64,000 bases of DNA from Acidobacteriota bacterium. GTDB taxonomy: Bacteria; Acidobacteriota; Thermoanaerobaculia; Multivoradales; Multivoraceae. This document shows, piece after piece, positions 18,005-61,417 of this stretch (position 1 is the stretch's first letter; the number at the start of each line of letters is the position of its first letter). Position numbers and translations under genes: made by a program. The stretch lies in the NCBI GenBank assembly GCA_003388555.1, contig QQVD01000027.1, positions 23,951-87,950 of the forward strand, read 5' to 3'. Under the pieces are notes generated by a model. It saw only the letters and a program-made list of their open reading frames with translations, was not told where the DNA came from and made no database searches.

Positions 18005-19896
18005 TCCCCGACGTTGGCTCGTCTGGTTCGCCGTTCCTGGGGCCCCTGGTGGAGGTGATGCCGGTGTTCGAGTCCTGGGCGGCTCGCGGTGGGCCCTCGG
18101 TGCTCACCGAGACTCTGCTGGCCTGGGCCGTGCTCGGCACCCTCGCCGCCGCGGGGGTGGCCCTGGCGCTGCGACTCACCCGAGCCCTCAACGCGAGCAC
18201 CCGGGTGTGGATCTGGTCAGCGACTCTGATCCTGGTCGCGGCGATCCCCCTCACACCGCACCAGCTCGTTCGTGACAACGCCGAGGCCCTCGGCGCGCGC
18301 CTCGAACGCGCCGCGGCGGGCGCCGACCCCCGGATCTCCGAGTCCTCGCAGGCGCCTCCGTCGTCGACCGGTGGAGTGCCAGCGGCGAGCGGGCCGCTGC
18401 AGGGCGCCGATCTTCGATCCACCGCTGGCGACGGCGATCCCGCTCCCGGTCTCGCCGCCCTCGCAAGTCTCGCCGCGCGCTGGACGGCTCGGGTCCCGAC
18501 GTGGCTCGGCCTGGTCTACGCCGGCGTCTGGCTGATCCTCGCTGTCTGGCGCACGCTGCGCCTGGTCGGCGCCTGGGTCGAGGTCCGCCTCCTCGCCTCC
18601 GGCGCCGTGCCGGCTGCGACCGCGGACAGGCGCATGCTGTCGCGCCTCGCCGCCGAGGCCAAGGTGGATCCCGTCCCGCCGTTGCGCCGTCTGCGACGCC
18701 TCGAGGGACCCGCCTGCCTCGGCTGGACCTCGCCCTGGATCGCTCTGCCAGCGGACTGGCCGGGTGGTCTCGGCTGCGACGCGCGGCGTCACGCGCTGCT
18801 GCACGAGCTCGCCCACGCGGTGCGGCGAGACAGCCTCGTGGCGCTGGTGCAGCGTGTTCTCGAAGTGCTGCTCGCGGGGCACCCGGCGGCCTGGTGGATC
18901 TCGCGCCAGATCGATCTCGAGCGCGAGATCGCCTGTGACGACTGGGCGATCGCCCACTCCGGCGATTCTCCGGTCGGCTACGGCCGCAGCCTGCTGGAGC
19001 ACGTCGACGTCGTCCCCCTTCCACGGCCGATACCGGCTGCCGGCTACCTTCACCACCGCACCCGACTGCAACGGAGGATCCGCACCATGATCGACGCCAA
19101 CAGAGACCACCGCATCGCCGTTCGCCGTCTGCCGCTGACGCTGGCCACGGCGAGCCTCGGCATCGCACTGCTCGGCTCGGCGGCCGCCTGGCCGCGCCAG
19201 GGAGCCGTGGCCACCGCCACGACGGTGCACGCCGCCACCGTGGCCATGCCCGTCGCCAACGCTCCCGGCAGCGAGCGCCACCCGCGGCTGCGGGCCGACG
19301 ACGCGCCGCTCTACGCCACGATCCGGCGCGGTGACATCGATCTCACCCGGGCGCTGCTCGACGCCGGCGAGCCGGTGAACCAGGTCTGGCCCGGCGACGG
19401 CTCGCCGCTGATCGAGGCGGTGCGCTCCGGCTCCTCGGAGCTGCTGCGGCTGCTGCTCGACCGCGGCGCCGAGGTCGATCTCGGCGTCGGTGGCGACGGC
19501 ACGGCGATGATCGCCGCGGCGCGCCGTGGCGACGTCGAGATGGTCGAGCTGCTGCTCGCCTACGGCGCCGACGTCGACCACGCCGGTCGCGGCGGCGACG
19601 GCAATCCCCTGATCGCCGCCAGCCTCGCCGGCGACGTCGAGATGGCGAGGCTCCTGGTGGCGCGTGGCGCCCGCGTCGACATCCACGTGCCGGACGACGA
19701 CACGCCGCTGATCAACGCCGCCCAGCAGGGCCACGTCGAGATGGTGCGCTACCTGCTCGAGATCGGCGCCGACCCCGACCTCACCGGCGACTTCGATCGT
19801 CGCCTCGAAACCGTGCGCACGCCGTTGAACCAGGCTCTCGCGCGCGGTCACGACGAGGTCGCCGAGCTGTTGCGGCGCGCCGGGGCGCGTCGGTGA
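18001..19896 (+). CDS. BlaR1-type M56 peptidase signal transducer with C-terminal ankyrin-repeat domain
   Basis: N-terminal TM helices, M56 zinc motif HELAHAVRRD (HExxH), then 5-6 ankyrin repeats (DGSPLIEAVRSGSSELLRLLLDRGAEVD, GTAMIAAARRGDVEMVELLLAYGADVD, NPLIAASLAGDVEMARLLVARGARVD, TPLINAAQQGHVEMVRYLLEIGADPD). Confidence 0.8.
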   Translation: MIPDVGSSGSPFLGPLVEVMPVFESWAARGGPSVLTETLLAWAVLGTLAAAGVALALRLTRALNASTRVWIWSATLILVAAIPLTPHQLVRDNAEALGARLERAAAGADPRISESSQAPPSSTGGVPAASGPLQGADLRSTAGDGDPAPGLAALASLAARWTARVPTWLGLVYAGVWLILAVWRTLRLVGAWVEVRLLASGAVPAATADRRMLSRLAAEAKVDPVPPLRRLRRLEGPACLGWTSPWIALPADWPGGLGCDARRHALLHELAHAVRRDSLVALVQRVLEVLLAGHPAAWWISRQIDLEREIACDDWAIAHSGDSPVGYGRSLLEHVDVVPLPRPIPAAGYLHHRTRLQRRIRTMIDANRDHRIAVRRLPLTLATASLGIALLGSAAAWPRQGAVATATTVHAATVAMPVANAPGSERHPRLRADDAPLYATIRRGDIDLTRALLDAGEPVNQVWPGDGSPLIEAVRSGSSELLRLLLDRGAEVDLGVGGDGTAMIAAARRGDVEMVELLLAYGADVDHAGRGGDGNPLIAASLAGDVEMARLLVARGARVDIHVPDDDTPLINAAQQGHVEMVRYLLEIGADPDLTGDFDRRLETVRTPLNQALARGHDEVAELLRRAGARR

Positions 19897-30042: not shown

Positions 30043-30074
30043 TCGTCAGGGCTCGCGGTTCGGCGCCAGGGGTC

Positions 30075-34274: not shown

Positions 34275-35450
34275 TCAGCTCTTCGCCGCGCTGCGCGGCA
34301 GGCCGAGCCCGCGCTGGGCGATGATGTTCTTCTGGATCTGGGCGGTGCCGCCGCCGATGATCAGGCCGAGGGCGTACATGTACTGGATCTGCCACTCGCC
34401 GTCGTCGCGCACGTGCGCCGAGCCGCGGCGCAGGATGCCGCGTTCGCCCATCGCGTCGATCGCCAGGGCGCAGATGTCGTAGTTCAGCTGGCAGCCGTTG
34501 AGCTTGGTGATCAGCCCCGAGGCGCCGCTGTCGCGACCGCGCAGGCGGTCGGTCAACATGCGGTAGCGGTGGAACTTCATCGCCAGGGCCCTGGCGCGCA
34601 GCCGCATCAGCCGGTCGCGCCAGACGGGATGGTCGATCTTGCCGGTCTCCCGCAGGATGCGCTCGGCGCCGTCGAGGAAGGTCTCGGCCTGGGCCGAGCG
34701 CCCCAGCATGTCGCGCTCGAAGCGCAGCGTCGCGGTACCGATCTCCCAGCCCTGACCGGGCTCGCCGATGACGTTGCCGGCCGGTACCCGGGCGTCGGTG
34801 AAGAAGACCTCGTTGAAGTCCGACTCGCCGGTCATCTGGCGCATCGGCCGCACCTCGATGCCGGGGGTCTGCATCGGGATGACCATGTAGCTGATCCCGC
34901 CGTGCTTGCCGGCTTCCGGCTCGGTGCGGATCAGCCCGAACATCATGTCGGCGATCTGGGCGGTCGAGGTCCAGATCTTCTGCCCGTTGATCACGTAGTC
35001 GTCGCCGTCGCGGCGGCCCCGGGTCTGCAGGCTGGCGAGATCGCTGCCCGAGCCCGGCTCGCTGTAGCCCTGGCACCAGAGCAGTCGACCGCGCATCGTC
35101 GGCTCGACCCACAGCTGCTTCTGCTCCTCGTCGCCGTAGTGGAGCAGGGTGGGCACGAACATCGAGATGCCCTGGTTGGCGATCCCCTGCGAGACGCCGG
35201 CGCGCCGGAACTCCTCCTCGATGACCAGATCGCCGAGCAGGTCGGGCTGCTGGCCGGCGCCGCCGTAGCGCTCCGGGATGGTGCGGCCGACCCAGCCGCC
35301 GTCGACCAGCAGGTCCTGCCAGGCGAGCCGTTGCTCCATGGTGGCCCCGGAACCCGGCCCGGCCGGCACCGCCAGGTCGCGGTGGCGGTCGAGGAACGAA
35401 CGCACCTGCTGGCGCAGACCGTCGTACTCGGGCCCGATGTCGAGGTCCAT
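34275..35450 (-). CDS. Acyl-CoA dehydrogenase
   Basis: ACAD motifs: LWCQGYSEPGSGSDLASLQT, DDYVINGQKIWTS, IIGGGTAQIQKNIIAQRGLGLP. Confidence 0.85.
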   Translation of the reverse strand: MDLDIGPEYDGLRQQVRSFLDRHRDLAVPAGPGSGATMEQRLAWQDLLVDGGWVGRTIPERYGGAGQQPDLLGDLVIEEEFRRAGVSQGIANQGISMFVPTLLHYGDEEQKQLWVEPTMRGRLLWCQGYSEPGSGSDLASLQTRGRRDGDDYVINGQKIWTSTAQIADMMFGLIRTEPEAGKHGGISYMVIPMQTPGIEVRPMRQMTGESDFNEVFFTDARVPAGNVIGEPGQGWEIGTATLRFERDMLGRSAQAETFLDGAERILRETGKIDHPVWRDRLMRLRARALAMKFHRYRMLTDRLRGRDSGASGLITKLNGCQLNYDICALAIDAMGERGILRRGSAHVRDDGEWQIQYMYALGLIIGGGTAQIQKNIIAQRGLGLPRSAAKS

Positions 35451-35468
35451 CCGCCAGCGCTCCGGTGC

Positions 35469-36338
35469 TCAGTCGAGCAGGTCGACCAGAGTGGACTCGA
35501 TGCGCTCGAATCCCTTGGCGCCGGTGAACCGTCCGACCTCGCGGTCGCCCCGGTAGACGATGGCGGTGGGCAGCCCGGTGACCTCGAGGGCGCGGACCTC
35601 GGCGTCCTGCCAGCCCTCCGGCGGATAGTCGATGCCGTAGTAGTCGAAGTCGATCCCTGCGCCGCGCAGCGACTCCTCGAGCTTCAGCGCGTGCGGCAGG
35701 TAGTGCTTGCAGTGGCCGCACCAGCTGCCGAAGACGATGCGCACCCGCACCGGCTGCTCGAGCGCCGTCAGCTTGGCCACCTGCGCCGGGTCGACGCGGT
35801 ACTCCCGCATGCCGGTGCGGTAGGCCGGCGAGTGCTGGAGGAGGTCGCCGAGCTCACGCGGGCCGAGCAGCGGCGGCTTGGGGCGCAGACGGGCGTTCTC
35901 GGGAGCCGGGAGGATCAGCTCGTGGCCGTCCTGGGTGAAGTCGCCGACGTAGGTGCGCTCGGCGTCCTCGCGCAGGTCGATCTCGTCGTCGCCGCGCAGA
36001 AGACCGGCCTCGGCCACCTGGTCGACCCGCTGAGTGCGGGCGAAGACGAGCAGCGGCGCCGGCAGCACCTCGCTCTCGACCAGCAGGGCGGCGGCTCGCT
36101 GCGAGAGAGCGATCTCGGCGTCGACCGGCTCGCCGTCGATGGTCAGCTGGTACTCGCCGCTCGGCACGAAACCGGAGAGCACTCCGTGCGACTGGCCCGG
36201 AGAGGCCGCGGGCGCTACAGCGGCGACGATCGCTGCTGCGATCGGCAGGCTCCCGCGGCGCCCCAGGCGCTGCCAGCGTGAGCGGTGGTCGCCCGCGTCC
36301 GCGGCCCGGCGATGCTGAAGGAGGGTGAGGTCGTTCAT
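35469..36338 (-). CDS. Thioredoxin-fold protein (CxxC, TlpA/DsbE-like) with N-terminal signal/anchor
   Basis: Active-site motif IVFGSWCGHCKHYLPH and downstream cis-Pro region (GLPTAIVY). Confidence 0.7.
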   Translation of the reverse strand: MNDLTLLQHRRAADAGDHRSRWQRLGRRGSLPIAAAIVAAVAPAASPGQSHGVLSGFVPSGEYQLTIDGEPVDAEIALSQRAAALLVESEVLPAPLLVFARTQRVDQVAEAGLLRGDDEIDLREDAERTYVGDFTQDGHELILPAPENARLRPKPPLLGPRELGDLLQHSPAYRTGMREYRVDPAQVAKLTALEQPVRVRIVFGSWCGHCKHYLPHALKLEESLRGAGIDFDYYGIDYPPEGWQDAEVRALEVTGLPTAIVYRGDREVGRFTGAKGFERIESTLVDLLD

Positions 36339-36491
36339 GGCGGCATCCCTGCTCGTGGGGGCGTCACGTCACACCTTGGCCGGCGACGCCCGGTGATCAG
36401 CGGCGATGCTATCGCGGGGACCACGGCGCTGCGGCCCGGGCGGCGGCACGGCGCCGCGGTGCAGGTCTGGTGGAGGAGGGCGGAGGAGGGC

Positions 36492-47365: not shown

Positions 47366-47659
47366 TCACCGCCCGGTGATCCCCGCGAAGCGCTCGAACA
47401 CCTGGAGCAGCTCCGTCACCTGCTGCTGACGCTCGGAATCGTCGCCGCTGCGCATGGCGTCGGCGACGCACGTCTCGACGTGGGTGCCGAGCAGCAACTG
47501 GCCGACCTTGCCGAGAGCACCGCGCACCGCGGCGATCTGGATCAGCACGTCGACGCACGGCTGGTCGTCCTCGATCATGCGGCGGATGCCGCTCAGCTGG
47601 CCCTCGGCTCGCTTCAACCGTTGCACGAGCCGTCGTGTCTCCTGCTGCCGTTGGTGCAT
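47366..47659 (-). CDS. csoR: CsoR/RcnR/FrmR-family metal-sensing transcriptional repressor
   Basis: ~97 aa all-helical; family motifs LKRAEGQLSGIRRMIEDDQPCVDVLIQIAAVRGAL (W/Cys-x... C-H-C ligand positions: C45, H70?, C74 context ...THVETCVADAM). Confidence 0.8.
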   Translation of the reverse strand: MHQRQQETRRLVQRLKRAEGQLSGIRRMIEDDQPCVDVLIQIAAVRGALGKVGQLLLGTHVETCVADAMRSGDDSERQQQVTELLQVFERFAGITGR

Positions 47660-47683
47660 TCGCGAAACCTCCCGGAGTCGACT

Positions 47684-47700
47684 ATACCCATACGGGGTAT
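47684..47700. promoter_or_regulatory. CsoR-type operator ATACCC-ATACG-GGGTAT
   Basis: Perfect 6-bp inverted arms ATACCC/GGGTAT around a 5-bp spacer, 25 bp upstream of csoR start; closely resembles the B. subtilis copZA CsoR box (ATACCCTACGGGGGTAT). Confidence 0.6.
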
Positions 47701-47987
47701 TGGTATCAACGGGTTGCCGGCGATCGCGCGGCCCGTCTGTGTCATCGGGCCACGGGCGTGGACTCGGGCCGAGCCGACGGGCGCTATGCTCGAAGGCCGC
47801 GGTGCGGTGCGAGTCCCCGTGGATGCCTCCGACTGCCCGGGTCGCGGCCGTCGCGGTCGCGGCGCCCCTCGCCGGCGCCGCGTGGAAACGGTGGAGATCA
47901 CCGCCACGACCGTGCGCGCCACGGTCGACGACGCCGGGCTTCCCGAGGGCGAAACTAGCGCTGCTGGAAGGCCGTAGGAGGTGTGCT

Positions 47988-48941
47988 GTGGCACGTCAGC
48001 TGGCACGAGAGATCATCTTCGCGATCGGCGACAACATGCGGGAGGGTCTCGAACCGCTGTTGACCAAGACCCTGGCGCCGTCGCTCTACCAGGTCTACCT
48101 GCATCGCGAGGACTACGACCGTCTGCGCACCATCTTCCCGCAGATCGAGGAGGAGGCCCGTCTGCACCTCGACCAGCAGCTCGAGCGGCTCGACCAGGAG
48201 GCGGTGCCGGTGGCGCGCAAGGTGCGTGGCAAGCTGCCCGAACGTCTGCGCGGCGGCGACGACGGCGCCCCTGTGTCGCGTCATGTGCCGGCGGAGGGCG
48301 CCTGGCACTTCCGCTTCCAGGAGGACCCCAACGAGTCGCTGGAGCCGGGCGAGATCGAGGTCGTCTCCGAGCTGGCGGTCGGCGAGCTCCCCGACTACGG
48401 AGGCGGCAGCGCCACCCAGCGCATCGCGGTGTCGACGACGCGTCGGCTCGGCCGCAGCGCGACGCGCCGCCAGAGCACCGGCGAGTCGGCGACCTCCTCC
48501 GGCGCCGAATCGGCTGACGCGGTTGCGCGGCCGGCACCCGAAGTCGACATGGACCGCACCCTCGCCTCCGCCCGGCTGGTGCCGCCGCCGCTGGTCGGCG
48601 TGCTGCGCTGGCAGGACGACGACGGCGATCACCGTTTCGAGCTCGACAAGTCCGAGATCTTCGTCGGTCGCGGCGCCGTCGACGTCTGGGTCGACGTGCG
48701 GGTGCGCAGCAAGGCCGACGTCTCCAGGCGCCACCTGCGCATCGAACGGCGGGAGCCTGAGCCGGGCGCCGAGGCCGCGCGGCGCTACTGGGTCGAGGAC
48801 CTCAGTCAGTTCGGGACCCGGCTGAACGGCGAGGAGCTCGATAGGCAGAGCCCGGTCGAGCTGCCCCCGAATGCGGTGCTCGAGCTCGCCTCCGTCCTCG
48901 AGCTGCGCTTCTCGGTGGAGCCTTCCGAGGCAGCGCGATGA
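47988..48941 (+). CDS. FhaA-like protein: N-terminal DUF3662 + C-terminal FHA domain
   Basis: GTG start after AGGAGG; N-terminus (REIIFAIGDNMREG...YQVYLHREDYDRL) resembles mycobacterial FhaA DUF3662; C-terminal FHA core (FELDKSEIFVGRGAVDVWVDVRVRSKADVSRRHLRIER...FGTRLNGEEL). Confidence 0.7.
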   Translation: MARQLAREIIFAIGDNMREGLEPLLTKTLAPSLYQVYLHREDYDRLRTIFPQIEEEARLHLDQQLERLDQEAVPVARKVRGKLPERLRGGDDGAPVSRHVPAEGAWHFRFQEDPNESLEPGEIEVVSELAVGELPDYGGGSATQRIAVSTTRRLGRSATRRQSTGESATSSGAESADAVARPAPEVDMDRTLASARLVPPPLVGVLRWQDDDGDHRFELDKSEIFVGRGAVDVWVDVRVRSKADVSRRHLRIERREPEPGAEAARRYWVEDLSQFGTRLNGEELDRQSPVELPPNAVLELASVLELRFSVEPSEAAR

Positions 48942-49029
48942 AGCCTCTGCGCCGCACCGCGCGGCGACGCGCCCACGTGGCTCTCGTGCCGGTTCCTGCC
49001 GCGGCGAAGCGCCCTCGGGGGCCCCGGCG

Positions 49030-50952
49030 ATGAGCGACTCCGTGGCCGGCGAGGGCCTGCGCATCGCCTGGAAGAGCGACGTCGGCACCCAGCGCGAGGG
49101 CAACGAGGACGTCGTCGTCTGCGAGCCGGAGCTCGGCCTGTTCGCGGTGATCGACGGCGTCGGTGGCGAGGTCGCCGGAGAGCGCGGCGCCGCCGAGGCG
49201 GCCGAGATCCTGCGCCGCCGGCTGCGCCGCGAGGAGGGCTCGACCGAGCGCCAGGTGCGCGAGGCGGTAGCGCTGGCGAACAACCGGCTCTACGAGCTCT
49301 CCGAGGACGATCCGTCGCTGCGCGGCATGTCGTGCGTGTTGACCGTGGCGCTCTTGCGTGCGCAGGAGATCGTCGTCGGCCACGTCGGCGACACCCGGCT
49401 CTACCTGATCGATCAGGACGGCATGCAGAAGGTCACCAGCGACCACTCTCCGGTCGGCCAGATGGAGGAGCTGGGCGAGCTCAGCGAGGCGGAGGCGATG
49501 CGCCACCCGCGACGCAACGAAATCTTCCGCGACGTCGGCAGCGCCTGGCGGGAGCCCGACGACGCAGACTTCCTGGAGATCTACCGCCGCGACTTCCCCG
49601 GCCAGGTGGCGATGCTGATCTGCTCCGACGGGCTGACCGACCAGGTCGGGACCGCGAAGATCCTCGAGGTCGTGCGGCGGTGCGCCGGACATCCGGGCGT
49701 CGCGGTCGACGAGTTGGTTCGCCTGGCCAACGAGGCCGGTGGCAAGGACAACGTCTCGCTGGTGCTGGTCGAGGGAGAGGACTTCGCGGCCGAGGTCCTC
49801 TACTCCGAGCGAGGCGCCGACGAGCTCGGCGACACCCGCCGACTGCAGACCGGCGACGCGCACGCAGCGCGGCAGGCCGGCAGCGAGGGCGCCCGGCTCG
49901 CCGTTGCCGGGGCGTCGGTGGGAGATCCCGGCCCGCCGGCGCCGAGGCGCTCCGCTGCCGCCGCGACCCATGGCCCGAGAGGCAGTGGCGACCGGCCGGC
50001 CGCCCTGCGCGGCGCCGCGGCGGCGCGCACCTCACGAATCCGCACCGTCGCCGGGGTGGCGGCGCTGGCCGCACTGCTGCTGCTCGGCTGGCTCCTGCTG
50101 GGCAAGCCGGGTGCGCCTCCGGCGGTGGAACGTGCGGCCGATCGCGTGACCCGGCGGATCGGTCTGGGTCCGGCCTGGACCCTCGAGGTCGGCCCCGGAC
50201 GCGGCTACGAGACCATCGGCGCGGCGCTCGCCGACGCCCTCGGCGGGGATACGGTGCTGGTCGACGACGGCACCTACCGCGAGCGCCTGGAGCTGCGCTC
50301 GGGGGTCAGCGTGCGGGCACGCAACCCACGGGCGGTGGTGCTCGAGACCGCCGCCGAGAGCAGCGCCGACGATGGCGCCGCGGTGCTCGCCGAGAGGGTG
50401 CGCAACGCCCGCCTCGAAGGGATCAGCATCGCCGTCTCCGGCGAGGCGGCGTCTGGGGCAGCGGGCAGCGACGCCGGCCTGCCGGTGGCGCTGCGGTTGA
50501 TCGATGCCCGAGTCGAGCTCAGCGACCTGGAGATCTCCGGCTCCACCGATGCCGCCATCGAGGCGCTCGGCGCCGACGACAGCATCATCGTCCGCTCCTA
50601 CCTCCGCGACCACCGCGGCGCCTGCGTCCGGATCGCGCCGCGTGCCACCACCGAGGTGCTCGAGAACCTCTTCGTGCGCTGCGGCCAGGATGGATCGCAG
50701 CCGGCGATCGACGCGCGGGAGGCGATCGGAGCCGTGGTGCGAGGCAACGACTTCCGAGACAACCGGGTGGCGCTGTGGGCGGGGCTGAGGCCGCTCGAGG
50801 AGCTGCAGTTGGTCAACGACTTCGACCTCGATCCGGATCAGCAGGTGGTGTCTGGACCGCCGCTGAGGGAGCCGACGCCACCGGCCACCGACGGCGCCGC
50901 GACCGGAGCCGGTGCGGGAGGCGGCGGCGGCAGTGGAGGAGGCTCGGATTGA
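49030..50952 (+). CDS. PP2C-family Ser/Thr phosphatase fused to TM helix and extracytoplasmic right-handed beta-helix domain
   Basis: PP2C motifs (GTQREGNEDVVV, FAVIDGVGGEVAGERGA, LICSDGLTDQV, GGKDNVSLVLV) in residues 1-245; TM (VAGVAALAALLLLGWLLLG); C-terminal ~280 aa with parallel beta-helix-like repeats (GTYRERLELRSGVSVRA, ARLEGISIAVSG, VELSDLEISGS, NLFVRCG...). Confidence 0.8.
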   Translation: MSDSVAGEGLRIAWKSDVGTQREGNEDVVVCEPELGLFAVIDGVGGEVAGERGAAEAAEILRRRLRREEGSTERQVREAVALANNRLYELSEDDPSLRGMSCVLTVALLRAQEIVVGHVGDTRLYLIDQDGMQKVTSDHSPVGQMEELGELSEAEAMRHPRRNEIFRDVGSAWREPDDADFLEIYRRDFPGQVAMLICSDGLTDQVGTAKILEVVRRCAGHPGVAVDELVRLANEAGGKDNVSLVLVEGEDFAAEVLYSERGADELGDTRRLQTGDAHAARQAGSEGARLAVAGASVGDPGPPAPRRSAAAATHGPRGSGDRPAALRGAAAARTSRIRTVAGVAALAALLLLGWLLLGKPGAPPAVERAADRVTRRIGLGPAWTLEVGPGRGYETIGAALADALGGDTVLVDDGTYRERLELRSGVSVRARNPRAVVLETAAESSADDGAAVLAERVRNARLEGISIAVSGEAASGAAGSDAGLPVALRLIDARVELSDLEISGSTDAAIEALGADDSIIVRSYLRDHRGACVRIAPRATTEVLENLFVRCGQDGSQPAIDAREAIGAVVRGNDFRDNRVALWAGLRPLEELQLVNDFDLDPDQQVVSGPPLREPTPPATDGAATGAGAGGGGGSGGGSD

Positions 50953-53123
50953 GCCGCCAGCCGGCATCCGCGGCGGCCTACACCATCGGCCGCTTCGAGC
51001 TGCGTCGTCACCTGGGACGCGGCGCCATGGGGGACGTCGAGCTGGTGTGGGATCCACGCAGCGGCCGCGAAGTGGCGCTCAAGTGGATGCGTCTCGAATC
51101 CAGCGATCCGGATGCGTTGGCTGCCGAGCGTCAGGGCGCCGAGCTGCAGCGTCGCGTCGCCGAGATCGCCCCGCAGGTCGCCGGAGTCTGGGAATACGGC
51201 GAGCTCGACGACGACCTGCGCGGCAGACTGCTCTACGTGGCGATGGAGTACGTCGACGGCGTCGACCTGGTGACCGTGCTGCGCGACCAGGCTGGTAGGG
51301 CCCTGGCGCTACCGCGGGCTCTGCACATCGCCGACGAGCTGCTCAGCGTGCTGGCGACGCTGCACGAGTACGAGACCGAGATCGACGGGCGCCGCATCAA
51401 GTGCGTGCTGCACGGCGACATCAAGCCGGAGAACCTGCGCCTGCAGCCGGGCGAAGGCGGGGAGAGACTGCGCATCCTCGACTTCGGCGTCGCCAAGCAC
51501 CTGACCCTGACCCGTCAGGCGACCCGCAACCTGTTCGGTTCCTATCCCTACACGCCGCCCGAGCGGCTGCGCACCGGCATGGTCGACGAGCGCTCCGACC
51601 TGTGGGCGGCGGGGGTCATCCTCTACCAGATGCTCGCCGGCCGCTCGCCGTACGCGGCGACCTCGGCCGAGCAGCTCGAGCGCGAGCTACGCACCCGGCC
51701 GGCGACGCCCCTGGGCGAGGCGGTCGTCAGCGGGGCGTACCCAGATCCACTGTTGCGGCTGGTCGATCGCTCGCTCGCCTTCGATGCGCAGGACCGGTTC
51801 TCCTCCGCCCGGGAGATGCGCGAGGCGCTGCGTGGAGTGGAGATCTCGCCAGAAGCCGGTGCCGCCTCGCCGGCCGGCCAGCCGGCGGCTGGCAGGTTCC
51901 CGCCGTCGGCGCCGCCGACCGCCGACGAGGCCACCCGACGCACCGCGTCGACCGGCGCCTCGGAGGCAGACGACGTCGAAGCGACCCGGCGCACCGCGCC
52001 GCTCGCTCCGGTGCCCCTGCCGACTGCGGAGGCACCGCCGGGACTGCCGCCGCTGCCGGGAGTGGCGGCGCCGCCATCCTCCTCGCAGACACGGCGCACC
52101 GTGCCGCCGCCGCCACCACGCTCGAGCTCCGGCGAGACCCGCGGCCGGCGACCTGGCGCGGTGGCGCCGACGACCTCCTCCGCCTCCGGGACCGGATCCG
52201 CCGCGGCGCCGGAATCGTCGGTCACGCCGGCTCAGGCGTCCTCCACCCGCCGCACCTCGGGCCGTCGTCGCCGGCGGCTGCCGCGCTGGCTGTGGATCGG
52301 CGCCATGATCTTCCTGGTGCTGCAGTACTCCGCCCACAACGCAGCCCGCTCGGTTGTCGCCGAGGTGACGAGCGAGGCCCGGCCCGATGTCGACCAGGCG
52401 CTGTCGGCGTACCGTTTCGCTGCCCGCATGCGCCCGTTCGATCTCGGCCTGGGTGAGGCGCGCCGCGCGCTGCGCGGAGCGCTGGTCGAGTCGGCGGAGC
52501 AGGTGATCGCCGCCTTCTCGGGTGAGGCGGCGGTGCCGCGCCAACGCGACTGGCAGCAGGCCCACGAGCACCTGAGGGCCGCCATCCAGCTGGGCCGGGA
52601 CGACGACGGGGTGCGCGCCCGGCTGCACTACACGCAGGCGCACGACGATCGCATCGCGGCGCGCTCGGCGTGGAACGAACGCGACCGGGACGGCGCCCGC
52701 AACCTCTGGAACCGGTCGATCCAGGGCTTCGAGCGGGCCGCGGAGCTCGATCCGGAGTGGCCCGACCCCTATCTCGGCCTGGCGCGCATCCACGCCTACG
52801 AGGTGTTCGACCTGGGGCGCCTCGAACAGGCGCTGCGCTCGGCCCTCGGCCGCGGCTACACCTGGGCCGACCGCGAGAAGGCGCAGCTCGCGGACGCCCA
52901 CCGCACGCAGGCCCGGCGCCTGGTCTCGGACGCCGACGAGCTGCGCGGCAGCGACGTCGAACGCGAGCGCGACCTGCTGCTCGAGGCGCGCGACCACCTG
53001 GCGCTGGCGGTGTCGATGTACGAGCAGATCCCCGGCTTCGGCAACGCAGCGCAGAACCGCGATCTGGCGCGCACCGCGATCGACGAGATCGAGCAGCGGC
53101 TCGGTGGCCGGAGACGCCTGTGA
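50949..53123 (+). CDS. Ser/Thr protein kinase with TM segment and C-terminal helical (TPR-like) domain
   Basis: Gly loop LGRGAMGDV, VAIK-like VALKW, catalytic HGDIKPENL, DFG (ILDFGVA), APE-like (TPPERL); TTG start overlaps PP2C stop (TTGA); Pro/Ser/Thr-rich linker then TM (WLWIGAMIFLVL) and ~270 aa helical domain. Confidence 0.8.
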   Translation: MSRQPASAAAYTIGRFELRRHLGRGAMGDVELVWDPRSGREVALKWMRLESSDPDALAAERQGAELQRRVAEIAPQVAGVWEYGELDDDLRGRLLYVAMEYVDGVDLVTVLRDQAGRALALPRALHIADELLSVLATLHEYETEIDGRRIKCVLHGDIKPENLRLQPGEGGERLRILDFGVAKHLTLTRQATRNLFGSYPYTPPERLRTGMVDERSDLWAAGVILYQMLAGRSPYAATSAEQLERELRTRPATPLGEAVVSGAYPDPLLRLVDRSLAFDAQDRFSSAREMREALRGVEISPEAGAASPAGQPAAGRFPPSAPPTADEATRRTASTGASEADDVEATRRTAPLAPVPLPTAEAPPGLPPLPGVAAPPSSSQTRRTVPPPPPRSSSGETRGRRPGAVAPTTSSASGTGSAAAPESSVTPAQASSTRRTSGRRRRRLPRWLWIGAMIFLVLQYSAHNAARSVVAEVTSEARPDVDQALSAYRFAARMRPFDLGLGEARRALRGALVESAEQVIAAFSGEAAVPRQRDWQQAHEHLRAAIQLGRDDDGVRARLHYTQAHDDRIAARSAWNERDRDGARNLWNRSIQGFERAAELDPEWPDPYLGLARIHAYEVFDLGRLEQALRSALGRGYTWADREKAQLADAHRTQARRLVSDADELRGSDVERERDLLLEARDHLALAVSMYEQIPGFGNAAQNRDLARTAIDEIEQRLGGRRRL

Positions 53124-56100
53124 GCCACGTGGCTGCTCGGCGGAGAACGCGATGGTCGTGACCCGGCGCAGCGCCGCGCCGCAGCCGGACGCGGCGCGCA
53201 CCCGTCGGCGGGCGCCCGTGTCCGGCGCGCGCGGCGGTGGCTTCGCTGGCCTCGGTGACTGGGGCCGTGCACGTCGTCGCGAGCGCTGGGCGCTGCTGGC
53301 GATCACGCTGCTGACCGTGCTTGCGGCCCACCTGGTGACTCATCGCAGCCTCGAGCGCGCCGAGCGGACCTTCTCGGGTTGGGACGGGGGTCCCGGTGTG
53401 CCGGGGTCGGCGGAAGACGTCGCCGCCGAGACCGCGGCGGCCTCGCCGGCGAGCTCACCGCTGGACCTCAACCGCATCGAGGATGCTGGCGAGCTCGAAG
53501 CGGTTCTCGGCGCCTGGAGCGATCCCCGCGAGCGACGACTGATCGCCGAGAGCGTGCTGGCGGCGCGCGACGCCGTCGGTCCGTTCCCCAACGTCGGAGC
53601 GTTGGCCGCCCTCTCCGTCGGCGGCGAGGAGGTCGCGGGCCGCTCCTACCCGAGACTCGGGCCGCGGCTCGAGGCCGAGCTCGCGGCGCTTTCCGCCGCG
53701 GCAGGCGGCAGCGATCCCGCCGCAGCGGCGCCCGAGGTGGCTCTCTTCTCGGCCGCCGAGCTGAGGACGCTCAAGCCGCTGGTGGTGGTGCGTCAGGGGG
53801 ACTCGGTGCGCCGCCTGCTGCGCGGCTGGACCCTGCTCCTGATCGCCGCTCTGTGGAGCGTGCATCTGATCTGGACGGCGTTCGCTCCCCAGATCGACGA
53901 GGCGTTGCTGCCCGCGGCCGCGGCTCTCGTCGGTCTCGGCCTGCTGATGATGGTGGCGGTGCGCGACCCGCTGCGCGACCTGGTGCTCGCCGGTCGATTC
54001 GTCCAGGGAGCGGTCGCCGGGCTGGCGCTGTGCTGCGTCGTCGCGATGATCCCGCTGCAGCGACTGCGGCTGCAGCGACACGCTGCCTGGGCGCTGGTCG
54101 CGGCGTTCGGCCTGTCGGTGCTGCTGCTCCTCTTCGGCAGCGGTCCCGGCAACAGCGACGCCAAGGTGAACCTGTTCGGCTTCCAGCCGGTCGAGGCGAT
54201 CAAGCTGCTGGTGGCCGTGTTCCTGGCCGGTTACCTCGCCGAACGGTGGGAGCTGCTGCGCGAGGTCGAGGAGCGGCGCAGCGAGCTGCGGCCGCTCGGC
54301 AACAGACTGAGCGTGCCGCGTCTCGAGTACCTGGCTCCGCCGGCGGTCGCCATCGCGGCGGTGCTCGCCTTCTTCTTCTTGCAGAAGGACCTCGGGCCGG
54401 CGCTGGTGATCGGCGGCCTCTTCCTGATCCTCTACAGCACCGCCCGCCGCCGGGTCGGCCTCGCGCTGGCGAGCACGGCGGTGCTGCTGCTGGGCTTCTG
54501 GGTCGGCTACCTCCTGGGCGTGCCGGCGACGGTGCGCGGACGCATCGAGATGTGGTTGTCGCCGTGGAGCAGCGACTTCCGCGGCGGTGACCATCTGGCG
54601 CATTCGCTCTGGGCGTTCGGCTCCGGGGGGCTGCTCGGTCGGGGTCTCGGTCGCGGTGATGCGGGCTTCGTGCCGGAGGCCCACACCGACATGGTGCTTG
54701 CGGCCCTCGGCGAGGAGCTCGGCGCTTTCGGCGTGCTGCTGGCGCTCGGCCTGTACGCGCTGATCTGCTGGCGGGCCCTGCACGCCGTGCGGCGCGCCGC
54801 GGGTGCCTTCGGCTTCTTCCTCGGCCTCGGCCTGGTGGTGGCGATGGTGCTGCAGATCGTTCTCATCGTCGGCGGTGTGCTCGGGCTGCTGCCCCTCTCC
54901 GGCGTGGTGACGCCGTTCCTCTCCTACGGCCGCTCCTCGATGCTGGCCAACTTCGTCGCCCTGGGTGCGATCGCTTCACTGAGCGCCGCGGCGCGAGAGG
55001 GCGCGTCGGAGAGCACCGCGGTGACGGCGCTGCGCCCGGCGCTGCGTCCGATCGCCGTCGCGTTCGCGCTCGTCGGTGTGGTACTCGCCGCCCGCGTCCT
55101 CTGGCTGCAGGGCGTCGCCGCCGATCGAGTCGCCGCCCGGGCGACGTTGGCGCTGCAGGCCGATGGCGAGCGCCGCCACGCCTACAATCCTCGGCTGCTC
55201 CAGATCGCGCGGCAGATCGGGCGTGGCGCCATCGTCGATCGCAACGGCATCGTGCTGGCGACCAGTGCCCGCGGCGATCTCGGCACCCACGCCGCGATCT
55301 TCGCCGAGCTCGGACTCGACGACCTGACCCGGCGCTCGCTGCGGCAGGCCGACGAGCGGCTCTATCCCCTCGGGGGTTACGCCTTCCATCTCCTCGGAGA
55401 CCTCAATGCGCGCCGTGGCTGGGGGGCGCCGAACAGCTCCTACCTCGAGCGCGATCTGTCACCTTGGCTGCAGGGTTTCTCGGTCGCCGCGAGCGGCGTC
55501 GCCGGTGCAGGCGGCGCCGGAGGCTCCGGGACCACGGCGCCGCTCGATCACTCGCCGCTGCTTCCGCTGCTGCGCCACGGCTTCGAGTCGCGGCGCCGCG
55601 ACGTGCAGGAGCTGCTGGCGCGCGATCGCACCCTGCGCACCACGGTCGACGCCCGGCTGCAGGTGGCCGCGGCGCGTATCCTGGAGAGCGCGGTGGCGCG
55701 GGCCGACGCCCGCCGCGGCGCGCTGGTGGCGCTCGACGCGGAGACCGGCGCCGTGCTCGCTCTCGTCAGCGTGCCCTGGCCGACGCTCGACGCCGAGGAG
55801 CCTCCCCCGGACGAGGCTCTGCTCGACCGGGTGCGTTACGGCCTCTACCCGCCGGGATCGACCTTCAAGCTGGTGACGGCGATCGCTGCGCAGCGGCGGG
55901 GAGTCGGCGATCGCGAATACGTCTGTGAGCGGCTGGGGGACGGGCGGGCCGGCCAGCAGGTGCGCGGCTGGGGTCGCCCCATCCGTGACGATCCGAGGGT
56001 GCAGCGGCCTCATGGCCGGGTGGACCTGGAGCGCGGGATCGCGGTGTCCTGCAACGCCTACTTCGCGCAGCTGGCGGTCTACGACGTCGGCGCACGGGCG

Positions 56101-56619
56101 CTGCTCGAGACGGCAGCAGAGCTCGGCATCGACGTCGCGTCACCGAACACACCCGAGGCGCTCGCCGATGCGCTGCCGCAGGCGGCCTACGGTCAGGGAC
56201 AGGTCGTCGCCTCGCCGCTGGAGATGGCGCGCGTCGCGGCGACCGTGGCGACGGGCGGGCTGCTGCCCGAGGCCCACTGGGTCGAGGGTGGGGCCGAAGG
56301 GCCGGCCGCCGAGCCGCGGCGGCTGATCTCGCCGCAGGAGGCGCAGCGCCTCGCGGAGGCGATGCGCAGGGTGGTCAGCGAGGGCTCGGCGTCGCGGGCG
56401 TTGGCCGGCCTGCTGCCAGCGGTCGCCGGCAAGACCGGTACCGCCGAGGTCGCCGGCGCGCCGTCGCACGCCTGGTTCGTCGGTTTCGCGCCGTACTCGG
56501 CTGGCGGCCGCCGCATCGCCATCGCGGTGCTGATCGAGAACGGCGGCTACGGCGGTCTCGAAGCCGCTGGCGCCGCCGGACGCCTGGTGCAGGCGGCGAG
56601 CCGTCTGGGGATCCTCTGA
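53104..56619 (+). CDS. Fused SEDS glycosyltransferase (RodA/FtsW-like) - class B penicillin-binding protein (transpeptidase), single 1171-aa ORF
   Basis: No stop between domains. SEDS region (...PSEFAK-like QPVEAIKLLVAVFLAGYLA, DLGPALVIGG, TDMVLAALGEELG, LPLSGVVTPFLSYGRSSM). Then TM + PBP2-like transpeptidase with S-x-x-K (PGSTFKLV), S-x-N (SCNAYF) and K-T-G (KTGTAEV). N-terminal ~240 aa extension contains HhH-like motifs (DLNRIEDAGELEAVLG). Confidence 0.8.
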   Translation: MAGDACEPRGCSAENAMVVTRRSAAPQPDAARTRRRAPVSGARGGGFAGLGDWGRARRRERWALLAITLLTVLAAHLVTHRSLERAERTFSGWDGGPGVPGSAEDVAAETAAASPASSPLDLNRIEDAGELEAVLGAWSDPRERRLIAESVLAARDAVGPFPNVGALAALSVGGEEVAGRSYPRLGPRLEAELAALSAAAGGSDPAAAAPEVALFSAAELRTLKPLVVVRQGDSVRRLLRGWTLLLIAALWSVHLIWTAFAPQIDEALLPAAAALVGLGLLMMVAVRDPLRDLVLAGRFVQGAVAGLALCCVVAMIPLQRLRLQRHAAWALVAAFGLSVLLLLFGSGPGNSDAKVNLFGFQPVEAIKLLVAVFLAGYLAERWELLREVEERRSELRPLGNRLSVPRLEYLAPPAVAIAAVLAFFFLQKDLGPALVIGGLFLILYSTARRRVGLALASTAVLLLGFWVGYLLGVPATVRGRIEMWLSPWSSDFRGGDHLAHSLWAFGSGGLLGRGLGRGDAGFVPEAHTDMVLAALGEELGAFGVLLALGLYALICWRALHAVRRAAGAFGFFLGLGLVVAMVLQIVLIVGGVLGLLPLSGVVTPFLSYGRSSMLANFVALGAIASLSAAAREGASESTAVTALRPALRPIAVAFALVGVVLAARVLWLQGVAADRVAARATLALQADGERRHAYNPRLLQIARQIGRGAIVDRNGIVLATSARGDLGTHAAIFAELGLDDLTRRSLRQADERLYPLGGYAFHLLGDLNARRGWGAPNSSYLERDLSPWLQGFSVAASGVAGAGGAGGSGTTAPLDHSPLLPLLRHGFESRRRDVQELLARDRTLRTTVDARLQVAAARILESAVARADARRGALVALDAETGAVLALVSVPWPTLDAEEPPPDEALLDRVRYGLYPPGSTFKLVTAIAAQRRGVGDREYVCERLGDGRAGQQVRGWGRPIRDDPRVQRPHGRVDLERGIAVSCNAYFAQLAVYDVGARALLETAAELGIDVASPNTPEALADALPQAAYGQGQVVASPLEMARVAATVATGGLLPEAHWVEGGAEGPAAEPRRLISPQEAQRLAEAMRRVVSEGSASRALAGLLPAVAGKTGTAEVAGAPSHAWFVGFAPYSAGGRRIAIAVLIENGGYGGLEAAGAAGRLVQAASRLGIL

Positions 56620-56651
56620 CCGCGTAGCGGAGCCGTAACGGAGAAGGACCG

Positions 56652-57887
56652 ATGCAGCGAGAAGACGAGGAGAGGCGGGCGTTGGCGGCGACCGATCGGG
56701 AGCGCCCGAGCGGCGAGGACGAGGCCTCCGCGGAGCAGACCTCGGAGCCTTCCGTCGAAGACGCCGGGGAGTCGACCTCAGAGCGGCCTCCCCGGTCCGT
56801 CGCCGGCCCGCACCGGTCGTCCTCCGGCGAGAAGGAGGACGGAGGCGATCCGGGCGGCGCGGCGGATGGTGGAGGTGAGGTCGAGGTCGCCGTCGAACGG
56901 CAGGGCGCGCCGGCGTCTTCGGCCGCCGCGAGCGCCGGGTCCGGCAGCGCCGAAACACCGAGTCGGGTCGAGGGCTGGTGGCGCCGCTTCGATGCCTGGC
57001 GGTCTCGCCTGCAGCAGCCGTGGCGCAGCGGCGACTCCCTGGTCGAGCTGACGCAGGCGGTGCGTCGCGACCTCGAGAGGACCCTGGAGCCGCTGGGCGG
57101 CGGCCGGAGGGTCTTTCCCTACGCGGGGGTCGTGGTGGTCCTGCAGCCGCGCGGCCCCGAGCAGGAGACCCTCTACCGCGCTGCCCTCGCCGAAGGTTGG
57201 CAGGAGCAGCTGCGCGAAGCGGTGGTCGAGCGCCTGCACGAGGCCGGCGCCCGACTGGATCGGCTCGATCTCGAGGTCCAAGTCCAGGTCGAGGAGCCCG
57301 AAGTGGACCCGGCCGAGGGCGCTTCGAGGTCGGCCTCGCCGGGCGAGTCCGCCGACGCCGGCCCCGCCTACCGACTCGAGCTGGTGCCGTTTCGCGAGGG
57401 CGATGCGGCGCGTCGGGCAGCGTCTGCCGGCGGGGAGGGCGATCGCGAAGGCGCGGCGGGCGGCGCTGCACCGGTGGATCGGGGCGAGGCGACGCCTCTA
57501 CGTCTGGTGGTCGAGGAGGGCGCTGCGCAGCAGGACGTCTACGAGTTCGAAGGCGGCTCCTCCCCCCGCATCGCGATCGGTCGCATGCGCGACGTCTTCG
57601 ACCAGCACGGCCGGATCCGAAGGCGCAACGATCTCGCCTTCGAGGACGACGGCGAGGTCAACGGCACCGTCTCCCGCGAGCACGCGCAGATCGCCTATCA
57701 GGCCGGTACCGACGACTACTGGTTGATCGACGATCGCAGCTCGTACGGCACCCGCATCTTCCGCGACGGCCGCGCGATCGAGGTCAGCAGTCGCGACCGG
57801 CGCGGCATCCGACTGCGCCAGGACGACCGCATCTACCTGGGTCGCGCCGTGCTTCGGGTCGAGCTCGGTCCGGCCGCAGCTGGATGA
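56652..57887 (+). CDS. Second FhaA-like protein (DUF3662-like N-terminus, acidic linker, C-terminal FHA domain)
   Basis: FHA core RIAIGRMRDV...NDLAFEDDGEVNGTVSREHAQIAYQAGTDDYWLIDDRSSYGTRIF; N-terminal region (LTQAVRRDLERTLEPLGGGRRVFPYAGVVVVLQP) resembles DUF3662. Confidence 0.75.
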   Translation: MQREDEERRALAATDRERPSGEDEASAEQTSEPSVEDAGESTSERPPRSVAGPHRSSSGEKEDGGDPGGAADGGGEVEVAVERQGAPASSAAASAGSGSAETPSRVEGWWRRFDAWRSRLQQPWRSGDSLVELTQAVRRDLERTLEPLGGGRRVFPYAGVVVVLQPRGPEQETLYRAALAEGWQEQLREAVVERLHEAGARLDRLDLEVQVQVEEPEVDPAEGASRSASPGESADAGPAYRLELVPFREGDAARRAASAGGEGDREGAAGGAAPVDRGEATPLRLVVEEGAAQQDVYEFEGGSSPRIAIGRMRDVFDQHGRIRRRNDLAFEDDGEVNGTVSREHAQIAYQAGTDDYWLIDDRSSYGTRIFRDGRAIEVSSRDRRGIRLRQDDRIYLGRAVLRVELGPAAAG

Positions 57888-58997: not shown

Positions 58998-59711
58998 TTA
59001 CGGGCTCTCGACCGAGATCAGCTCGACCTCGAAGATCAGCGCTTCGTTGGGGCCGAACTTGGCGCCCGGAGGCGACTGCTGCCCGTAGGCGAGGCCGGCT
59101 GGGATGAACAGCTTGTACTTGGCACCCGGGCTCATCAGCTGCAGTCCCTCGGTCCACCCGGGGATCACCTGGCCGAGTCCGAAGGTGACCGGCTCGCCGC
59201 GCTGCACCGAGCTGTCGAAGACCTCGCCGTCGATCGTGGTGCCGTGGTAGTGCACCGTCACCCGGTCGGTGGCGGCCGGCTTGGCGCCCTCGCCCGACTC
59301 GATCACCTCGTACTGCAGACCGCTGTCGGTGGTCACGACGCCCTCGCGCTGCGCGTTCTCGGCGAGGAACGCCTCGCCCGCGGCGAGGTTCTCCTGACCC
59401 TCCGCCTGCATCCGCGCCTGGCGCTGCTGCATGAGCTGCTGCTGGAACTGCTGCAGGGTCTGGCCGATCTCCTGGTCGGTGAGCTGGAGATCCTCGCCGG
59501 CGATCGCCTCCCGTAGGCCACGCACCAGCATGTCGACGTCGATGTCCGAGGCGTCCTGAGCCAACTGCTGCCCGAAGTTGACGCCGATGGCGTAGGCCGC
59601 CTTCTGCTCGAAGGTCTCGAGCGAGCCCTCCTGGGCGCTGGTCGGGGAGTCGGCGCAGGCGGTGAAGAGGAGCGCTGTGGTGGCGAAGGCGATGCGGAGA
59701 GCTGCAGTCAT
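58998..59711 (-). CDS. FKBP-type peptidyl-prolyl cis-trans isomerase (FkpA/Mip-like, lipoprotein signal)
   Basis: Lipobox LLFTAC; N-terminal dimerisation helices; FKBP core TDSGLQYEVIESGEGAKP...VTVHYHGTTIDGEVFDSS...VIPGWTEGLQLMSPGAKYKLFIPAGLAYG. Confidence 0.8.
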   Translation of the reverse strand: MTAALRIAFATTALLFTACADSPTSAQEGSLETFEQKAAYAIGVNFGQQLAQDASDIDVDMLVRGLREAIAGEDLQLTDQEIGQTLQQFQQQLMQQRQARMQAEGQENLAAGEAFLAENAQREGVVTTDSGLQYEVIESGEGAKPAATDRVTVHYHGTTIDGEVFDSSVQRGEPVTFGLGQVIPGWTEGLQLMSPGAKYKLFIPAGLAYGQQSPPGAKFGPNEALIFEVELISVESP

Positions 59712-59959
59712 GGGATCCTCGCGAGCCGCTTCGTCGTGGTCGGCCTCGTCCTCGGCGGCGGATCGATCCGACGCATTGAGACGCACGCAACCTCGCGCTG
59801 GGAGCGGCAGTTTGGTTGGGGAGAGTTCAGGGACGTGGGGCGAAGTGGAGCGGGGCGCAGCGGCTGCCCGGATGGGGAGGCTGCAGAGCGCCGTGCCGGC
59901 CGTCGCCGAGTTCCAGCGGTGCCCGCGGACTTCTGGGACACCCACGTTCGCGGAGCAGT

Positions 59960-60688
59960 CTAGCCGCGCGCCAGCTTCTCGAACCAGGAGCGGTAGACGC
60001 GCGTTGGCTGGGCGCCCATCAGCACGCCGGCCGACTTGGCCTCGGGGTCCGTGACTTCGGCCCGCACCGCAGGGGCGCCCGAGGCGCCGAAGAATAGGGC
60101 CTCACGGTGCTCCGCCCGTACGCGGGCCTCCCAACGTGACGCGTCTCGGGGGCATTCCCCCAGTCCGGCGTGACGCCAGAGATCAGCGAGCACGTCTGCC
60201 GAGGTGATGTCGCGGTGGTCGCGGAAGTAGGCTTCGAACAGCGAGCGGTGCAGCGCCTCGGCGCGGCGACCCAGAGGCCGCGTCTCGGCATCAGTCGTGT
60301 CGTCGGAGCGACCGCCCGCCTGCTGGAGCTCGCGCTCTCGCGCCTCCTGCATCCAGAGATGCGGCGGCAGGCTGTGCGAAGGGGGGCCGTCGTCGCTCGA
60401 CCATCCCGGGCGGAAGCCCGCCGCGGGCTCCTCCTCGGCGGCGCGCCGCCACGAGCCGGTGTAGTCGCGGAACTGCTCGAGAGACCTCGGGCTGGCGGCC
60501 TGCTCGGGGCGCAGCAGGAAGCTCTTCCAGCGCAGCTCGAGTCTCTGCCCAGAGGCAGCCAGCTCGTCCTGGAGCGCTCGCAGACGGACCTCTGCGACCC
60601 AGCACCAGGGTCAGAGGTAGTCGGAGTAGACGACCAGGGTGACTTCTCGGAGGGTGTCGGTGCTGTCGTTGGGGTCGTCGTTGCGCAT
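59960..60688 (-). CDS. FrnE/DsbA-like thiol-disulfide oxidoreductase, candidate selenoprotein (in-frame TGA at 60611-60613 in active-site motif U-P-W-C)
   Basis: ATG at 60688 -> MRNDDPNDSTDTLREVTLVVYSDYL-TGA-PWCWVAE...; same frame continues without other stops into the 59960..60352 ORF (..LMGAQPTRVYRSWFEKLARG*), giving a ~240-aa DsbA-family protein. DsbA/FrnE consensus is SD(V/Y)xCPWC, so TGA occupies the nucleophilic Cys position. Confidence 0.6.
60575..60600 (-). ncRNA. SECIS-like stem-loop 13 nt downstream of the in-frame UGA
   Basis: mRNA: UGA CCCUGGUGCUGGG UCGCAGA GGUCCG UCUGCGA; 7-bp perfect stem, 6-nt loop containing GU, appropriate spacing for a bacterial SECIS. Confidence 0.4.
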
Positions 60689-60919
60689 GCGGTGCCCGGG
60701 GCAGCCGGGGGAGGTCGTTGCCTGAGTCTAGTCGCTGGCGTGAGGTGCCGCTCTACGGCGACGACCGTCCGCGCGACGTCAGCGGGGCCGCCGAATGCGT
60801 ATCCCGAGAGTGAACAGGCAGCCGACGATCCGAACCGGCGCCCCCCGGGATCCGGACATTCGCTGTGCGATGAAAGATCGAGCGTGCTTGCCGACCGCGA
60901 ACTCCGGGAGGGCAGACCG

Positions 60920-61417
60920 ATGATCACGAAGCAACCACCGAGCGTCCGCGTCCTGACTCCGCTGCTCGTGCTGGCGACGCTGATCCTGGCGGAAGCCGCA
61001 GCGGCGCAGCCGGTTCTTCCGGCCGTCACCAAAGGCGCAGGAATCTTCTCCGGCCCCCTCGACGTCTGTCTGATGCCGGCTCCGCCGGCCCCGGCAGTTC
61101 CGATCCCCTATACGGCGGTCGTCGTCGAATCCGGTGGCGGTTTCGCCAAGAAGGGCGACAAGGTGAAGATCAAGATCCGCGGCGAAGGTCTCGAGAGGAT
61201 CGGCTCGGTGGAGCTCTACCAGAACGGCCGCAAGGTCACCAACATCAAGGCGATGCTCCAGCGCCCGCGAGCGGGAATGCGGAACTCGACCGAGCGCGAG
61301 CTGACGCTGACCGTGGTCCGCGTCTTGCCCGCTCCTCTCGAGACGATCCGAATCCGCAGGCGCGTATCGACGGCGCCGGTCCTCTTCGAGCACCGAATCC
61401 CGGTGAACGCCATGTAG
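60920..61417 (+). CDS. Small secreted hypothetical protein (165 aa) with Lys-rich beta segment
   Basis: ATG after GGGAGG; signal peptide (LLVLATLILAEAAAAQP); unusual Lys-rich stretch (GGGFAKKGDKVKIKIRGEG) in a Lys-poor proteome. Confidence 0.45.
   Translation: MITKQPPSVRVLTPLLVLATLILAEAAAAQPVLPAVTKGAGIFSGPLDVCLMPAPPAPAVPIPYTAVVVESGGGFAKKGDKVKIKIRGEGLERIGSVELYQNGRKVTNIKAMLQRPRAGMRNSTERELTLTVVRVLPAPLETIRIRRRVSTAPVLFEHRIPVNAM

Follow-up and report, generated by a model that had tools for sequence, protein, structure and literature searches.

The window, as the whole stretch of 64,000 nucleotides analysed here is called, carries on its minus strand a DsbA-like gene of 242 codons with an in-frame TGA as codon 26, and this gene very probably encodes a selenoenzyme. 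The UGA would be read as selenocysteine (Sec) by SelB and Sec-tRNA(Sec) acting on a stem-loop of the mRNA, and the product would be a cytoplasmic FrnE-like oxidoreductase with a U-P-W-C active site, Sec26 being the attacking and Cys29 the resolving residue. The locus is most likely an additional member of a selenoprotein family known since 2005. The following features were assigned, together with the evidence used:

59960-60688, minus strand: predicted selenoprotein coding sequence, 242 codons including one UGA (Sec26), ending with TAG (frame, third-position GC, Pfam, alignment, AlphaFold)
60686-60688, minus strand: ATG start, the sole ATG, GTG or TTG in frame between the upstream stop and the UGA (translation)
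60611-60613, minus strand: in-frame TGA, read as Sec, residue 26 (homologue alignment, identical contigs, TGA relatives)
60602-60613, minus strand: U-P-W-C redox motif of Sec26, Pro27, Trp28 and Cys29 (translation, alignment)
60568-60609, minus strand: extended stem-loop of about 40 nt that begins directly after the UGA and is formed by the lower stem CCUGG/CCAGG and the upper hairpin (minimum free energy structure)
60578-60597, minus strand: upper SECIS-like hairpin, 7-bp stem UCGCAGA/UCUGCGA with loop GGUCCG, 13 nt past the UGA (folding)
60275-60334, minus strand: lineage-specific insertion of 20 residues, RELQQAGGRSDDTTDAETRP, residues 119-138 in the helical domain (alignment)
59960-60352, minus strand: fragment, the 130-aa "hypothetical protein" REJ84691.1 / REK08893.1 of GenBank (database look-up)

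The frame extends from ATG 60688-60686 to TAG 59962-59960, and the TGA at 60613-60611 is its sole interruption, thus confirming the initial annotation, which had described the frame as otherwise open up to this ATG. Translation across the TGA gave MRNDDPNDSTDTLREVTLVVYSDYL-TGA-PWCWVAEVRLRAL..., and a further stretch after the stop reads PWCWVAEVRLRALQDEL.... The open reading frame 59960-60352 begins at the first ATG, GTG or TTG past the TGA, 86 codons downstream (M113), and represents the last 130 of the 242 codons, hence the C-terminal part only, as had been proposed. A truncation by gene callers had also been predicted, and GenBank indeed lists just this tail. The GC content of the window is 71%, and third-position GC is a strong frame indicator in such DNA. 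Its value in the same frame was 0.92 upstream of the TGA, 0.83 downstream of M113 and 0.87 between the two; the coding composition is uniform on both sides of the TGA. TGA is the usual stop in the window and ends 29 of 37 coding segments, thus a genome-wide code change is excluded and a recoding at codon 26 must be local. The start at 60688 is a predicted one, since neither a Shine-Dalgarno nor a sigma-70 consensus was seen upstream of the ATG. A promoter and terminator scan of positions 59600-61000 found nothing. Divergent from the selenoprotein gene runs an ORF of 165 amino acids on the plus strand (60920-61417); all assemblies list it as a gene, and Pfam gave no match.

With Cys put for the stop, the translated frame matched the Pfam family DSBA (PF01323) with E = 8e-15 and 55.6 bits versus a cutoff of 25.6. 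The above-threshold match flanks the TGA on both sides, and the DsbA identity claimed for the full frame was thereby confirmed. A large protein collection contained 439 relatives. The best of them, "DsbA family" proteins of about 205 amino acids, shared 41-52% identity over 92-95% of the query. Among 18 full-length homologues the TGA codon aligned with the first Cys of an invariant YSDYL-C-PWC, in agreement with the earlier placement of the TGA at the nucleophilic Cys of the CPWC motif. An upstream part unrelated to DsbA had been named as a sign of a real truncation or pseudogene; this was checked, and the 25 codons upstream of the TGA align with the beta1 strand and the motif of the full-length homologues. 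All 34 of the 34 invariant family columns are kept in the window protein despite an identity of only about 50% to its nearest relatives. These positions include W54, LLRP at 58-61, F73, Y76, T77, W80, the PP-S-P-H residues (102-110) of the GPPSHSxPPH motif and P206 in the cis-Pro loop. The 20-residue insertion is missing in 21 of 21 aligned homologues, a second insertion of 6 residues is located at about 212-217, and the protein deviates at three near-invariant positions adjoining the longer insertion. The acidic 20-residue insertion might give this copy a changed partner specificity. NCBIfam has no model for the family of the window protein and returned a single match of 12 bits to Rcas_1661_fam_Se.

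An AlphaFold model built on the homologue alignment reached a pLDDT of 91.9 and a pTM of 0.88. Its N-terminal part comprises a strand (16-22), U26-P-W-C29 at the start of a helix (28-45) and a second strand (50-56), followed by a helical domain (70-199), the strands 207-212 and 222-224 and a helix (229-241). The DsbA architecture is predicted with confidence: a helical domain interrupts the thioredoxin fold, and the redox motif stands at the start of helix 1. Located between the strand 16-22 and the helix 28-45 of the model, U-P-W-C occupies the place of the CxxC in proteins with a thioredoxin fold. The 20-residue insertion was modelled at a pLDDT of about 81-82 and leaves the fold undisturbed. 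The top fold matches were FrnE, SCO1869, YjbH, VP2116 and DsbM, all of them cytoplasmic DsbA-like proteins. Judged by inspection only, a signal peptide is absent: the acidic, hydrophilic N-terminus MRNDDPNDSTDTLRE runs straight into beta1. A C-terminal CxxxxC tail is also absent; the protein ends with ...YRSWFEKLARG, and the sole other Cys is located in LGECPRD.

The TGA is an inherited feature of the gene. Seven assembled contigs, drawn from at least six samples of the acidobacterial MAG, carry the complete gene with its TGA and without a single base difference, which excludes an assembly error. The window protein was found exactly in the "Acidobacteria bacterium" MAG GCA_003385675.1 (contig QQUW01000010.1), and further exact protein matches occurred in several ENA and Logan assemblies. 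Homologues that look N-terminally truncated in the databases, P0006 (Thermoanaerobaculia), P0119 (Acidobacteriota) and P0013, have an in-frame ...VYSDYL-TGA-PWC... upstream of the called start, and the loci L001-L003 carry TGA at the codon of Sec26. A pattern scan for DYL-TGA-PWC in one genome per GTDB species revealed at least 113 DsbA-like genes whose frame stays intact for about 190 codons past the TGA (113 of 120 among the matches listed). Among these matches the TGA forms came from Methylomirabilota/Rokubacteria, Binatia, Acidimicrobiia (including the sponge-associated Poriferisodalis), Rubrobacterales, Acidobacteriota, Chloroflexota, Tectomicrobia and others. The comparison of the U/C column suggested by the initial annotation separated Cys forms with Cys at this position from L001-L003 and at least 113 species genomes with TGA. 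Nearest relatives of the window gene in BLAST were mostly TGA forms. In a neighbour-joining tree of 111 TGA and 85 Cys forms, the window gene was placed within a clade of eight that consists of TGA forms throughout; the TGA was thus inherited from the ancestor of this clade and did not arise by a recent nonsense mutation.

A SECIS-like hairpin had been described in the initial annotation, and it exists at 60597-60578, 13 nt after the UGA, with the stem and loop proposed; as evidence on its own it is weaker than had been implied, the 86-nt region being no more stable than shuffled sequences (z = -0.3). The upper hairpin has an energy of -10.8 kcal/mol with the loop starting at nt +23 and is present in the minimum free energy and centroid folds alike. 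About 19% of synonymous recodings with the codon usage of the window match its stability with a loop at nt 21-25, and the stability of the window hairpin by itself is not significant. The plain minimum free energy did not discriminate between TGA forms (-11.0 kcal/mol) and Cys forms (-11.1 kcal/mol), and a position-specific test was used instead. The best simple hairpin had its loop start at nt 22-24 after the U of the UGA in 90 of 111 TGA forms; in Cys forms the loop start was scattered. A positioned hairpin, defined by an energy of at most -7.5 kcal/mol and a loop start at nt 21-25, was observed in 78 of the 111 TGA forms (70%) versus 21 (19%) expected from synonymous recoding, and in 26 of 85 Cys forms (31%) versus 13 (16%) expected. 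The Fisher test between TGA and Cys forms gave p = 3e-8, with the reservation that related sequences were counted as independent and family-level p-values are consequently too small. The Cys set is richer in GC (0.71 versus 0.65), which renders the contrast conservative. A lower stem of the CCUGG/CCAGG kind was present in 63% of TGA forms versus 35% of Cys forms.

Covariation was analysed in 24 TGA forms with the pairing register of the window. Compensatory pairs were CG (6), AU (5) and UA (5) at columns 17-36, and CG (14) and UA (8) at columns 18-35. The covariation score of 0.335 compares with 0.209 in shuffles, none of 500 reaching 0.335, and with at most 0.104 in slid controls. This set was picked for forming the hairpin, so the percentage of paired positions is biased, while the compensatory pattern is unbiased. 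The closest TGA relatives have the register and loop of the window together with compensatory changes. Where A-U pairs are needed, the stem of the window uses rare codons, namely GCA (4.8% of Ala), CGT (7.3% of Arg) and CGA (5.7% of Arg); CGA stands at the same stem place in the loci L001, L066, L082, L092 and L096. Position, loop and codon choice of the hairpin are significant only at the family level. An Rfam search of the whole 64-kb window at the gathering threshold matched no family, SECIS and tRNA-Sec included, and with E <= 10 the region 60480-60700 yielded neither of these two, the sole match being a chance ASdes.

Genes for selA, selB, selD or tRNA-Sec and a second selenoprotein were not present in the 64-kb window and about 18 kb of flanks, but these about 82 kb are a small part of a genome of presumably several Mb, so the absence of the machinery there says little. 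ARAGORN found no tRNA in the window or the right flank, and the Pfam analysis of 36 coding segments of the window plus the precomputed domains of the flanks revealed no SelA, SelB, SelD or known selenoprotein family. The DsbA gene was the only one in the window with a long, start-less, coding-like leader after a TGA. Abutting ORFs in the same frame (8735-10762, 10790-15067 and 34275-36368) were considered as recoded TGAs and rejected as ordinary adjacent genes. Across the TGA of 8735-10762 (plus strand) unknown, Usp and CBS segments abut in the same frame, and in 34275-36368 (minus strand) a thioredoxin-domain protein is followed by an acyl-CoA dehydrogenase; both are ordinary genes because a start codon lies within 4-14 codons of the TGA and the domain architectures are separate.

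A cell-wall and signalling cluster at 47430-57884 resembles the actinobacterial fhaA-pstP-rodA-pbpA-pkn locus; its genes code for two FHA proteins, a PP2C phosphatase and a Ser/Thr kinase (about 50953-52576). The cluster also includes, at 52576-56616, a single gene of roughly 1155-1171 amino acids that joins an FtsW/RodA domain to a PBP transpeptidase. A very large protein of 1961 amino acids at 24163-30045 (minus strand) combines DUF3686 ("ATPase involved in DNA repair", E = 5e-196) with DUF7902 and an AAA ATPase domain. On the plus strand, 17791-19893 encodes a fusion protein with a BlaR1-type M56 peptidase domain and, at its C-terminus, ankyrin repeats, and sulfatase and sulfotransferase genes lie just to the right of the window. 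The ankyrin-fused peptidase and the sulfatase and sulfotransferase genes are hints of a host-associated lifestyle, for example in a sponge.

For the source organism we infer Sec decoding from the intact gene, the kept stem-loop and the inheritance within the TGA clade. A rival reading is that of a relic, in which the TGA form was inherited, the Sec machinery has since been lost and translation ends at codon 26 of a young pseudogene. We consider this unlikely, although the lack of Sec machinery in the about 82 kb read would agree with it, as would the unusual insertions, the departures at some near-invariant residues and a window hairpin that is not significant alone. The 242-codon frame is intact with all 34 invariant residues and full coding composition, the hairpin has been kept with three rare codons at stem positions, and the AlphaFold model is confident; a loss of Sec would need to be very recent, and a reading of about 82 kb tells very little on the machinery where the genome presumably measures several Mb.

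That the UGA is decoded by other means, for example as Trp or Cys through near-cognate read-through or under a genome-wide code change, is very improbable. The TGA ends most genes of the window, so there is no reassignment, and Sec recoding is marked by just this combination of a catalytic Cys position and a positioned stem-loop with G in its loop (PMC1088965); nothing specific speaks in favour of the other decodings. The identity of seven contigs from at least six samples, the TGA at the same codon throughout the clade of eight, hence an ancestral one, and at least 113 further species with the same arrangement have largely refuted a fresh nonsense mutation of TGC to TGA in an ordinary DsbA gene of the Cys form, and likewise an error of sequencing or assembly. 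This reading is hardly credible, even though TGC is the usual Cys codon at such GC, a single base change would suffice and GenBank annotates the 130-aa tail only.

Selenocysteine insertion thus stands as the preferred reading, and a catalytic sequence may be proposed. The UGA at 60613-60611 would be recoded during translation, with the mRNA stem-loop at 60609-60568 (apical loop GGUCCG) as putative recruiter of SelB with Sec-tRNA(Sec); the source genome would accordingly be expected to possess selA, selB, selC and selD. In the protein, the selenolate of Sec26 is the likely nucleophile in the attack on disulfides of the substrate, and the mixed selenenylsulfide would be resolved by Cys29. The redox direction and the substrates are assigned presumptively. 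The FrnE C-terminal tail being absent, recycling is presumably achieved by a thioredoxin-type or low-molecular-weight thiol system.

For the annotation, the 130-aa "hypothetical protein" has to be corrected to the tail of a 242-aa selenoenzyme, and a selenoenzyme at this locus implies the use of selenocysteine by the acidobacterial MAG. Public calls of TGA forms start just past the CPWC and are named "DsbA family protein" or remain unnamed. Truncated calls are P0006, P0013, P0119 and that of the window, P0123, and at the loci L001, L002 and L003 the calls cover 2061-2624, 3001-3579 and 3001-3537. The truncation of TGA forms is systematic across many phyla, including the loci L012-L131. With TGA forms in at least 113 species, selenoproteome and redox-enzyme inventories are thereby understated, in particular for Methylomirabilota/Rokubacteria, Binatia, Acidimicrobiia, Rubrobacterales and Acidobacteriota. 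The knowledge of Sec decoding and of DsbA chemistry is unchanged by the finding.

A rough neighbour-joining tree required at least 20 switches between Sec and Cys. The Cys-form homologues (L132-L251) have a hairpin at the SECIS position at about twice the expected rate (31% versus 16%). It is conceivable, though rather doubtful, that the conserved A-A-V-R-L-R after the CPWC, written in GC-rich codons, partly hard-wires a SECIS-like hairpin at a suitable distance and that this DsbA group is a pre-adapted hot spot for changes from TGC to TGA. If true, a single such change would make a working selenoprotein in this group, and the wide spread, at least 113 species among the matches listed, would be explained. 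Two modest points may go beyond the known literature: the widespread truncation of the subfamily, and a coding sequence that partly pre-forms the hairpin together with many Sec/Cys switches.

Selenoproteins of the DsbA-like type with a UxxC motif, assigned to COG2761, the COG of FrnE, were reported in 2005 from the Sargasso Sea with 9 sequences, under the name "DsbA-like protein" (PMC1088965). They were also present in the sequenced genomes of Anaeromyxobacter, Desulfovibrio and Desulfotomaculum (PMC1794560), are represented as "DsbA 1" with 63 sequences in the GOS selenoproteome (PMC2398784) and are named "DsbA-like protein form 1" in a review of 2026 (PMC13188914). The initial annotation was thus right in calling FrnE-like selenoproteins a recognised family, as COG2761 proteins with UxxC appear in three of these sources (PMC1088965, PMC2398784, PMC13188914). 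The window protein shares with them the Pfam family DSBA and Sec as the first residue of UxxC, where it replaces the nucleophilic Cys, and the gene shares widespread Cys-form homologues and a stem-loop with a G in its loop directly after the UGA. COG, Pfam and motif suggest membership in the same subfamily as published representatives such as NIP15863.1 and AACY01178397. The window copy differs by its origin from an acidobacterial MAG and by the insertions of 20 and 6 amino acids, which were not seen in relatives.

Among solved structures, FrnE of Deinococcus radiodurans (DR_0659; 5cnw, 5co3, 5xwh) is the closest by sequence, 5cnw being the best PDB match with E = 7.5e-18. It is also among the top fold matches with a TM of about 0.6, at an identity of only 16-19% in the structural alignments, so the likeness to FrnE claimed earlier was upheld. 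Both proteins belong to the cytoplasmic, FrnE-like branch of the DsbA family (PF01323, COG2761, cd03024) with a CP(W/F)C site near the N-terminus (U-P-W-C in the window) and a helical insertion domain; the active site of the D. radiodurans protein has Cys, whereas Sec is predicted for the window protein. D. radiodurans FrnE is active as a disulfide isomerase and as a reductase and plays a role under oxidative and cadmium stress (PMC8945050). Its C-terminal CxxxxC tail was proposed to regenerate the active site and is present in many FrnE members, but not in all, S. roseofulvus and D. maricopensis FrnE lacking it (PMC8945050). Like these two, the window protein, ending with ...WFEKLARG, is without the tail. 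In contrast to D. radiodurans FrnE, the group of the window protein has its own invariant motifs WRSFLLRP and GPPSHSxPPH.

The RNA element corresponds to the fdhF-type SECIS of E. coli in being a stem-loop of about 40 nt right after the UGA, inside the coding region, with a small apical loop containing G (GGUCCG in the window) about 20 nt past the UGA. We take the loop of the window to resemble the GGUC-containing apical loop of the fdhF SECIS. The stem register varies among the subfamilies (48, 50 or 51). Compared with bacterial SECIS elements, the window element has no Rfam SECIS match, and its role as recruiter of SelB is putative. Different from the fdhF type, a part of its pairing potential is imposed by the A-A-V-R-L-R peptide and is found in some Cys forms as well.
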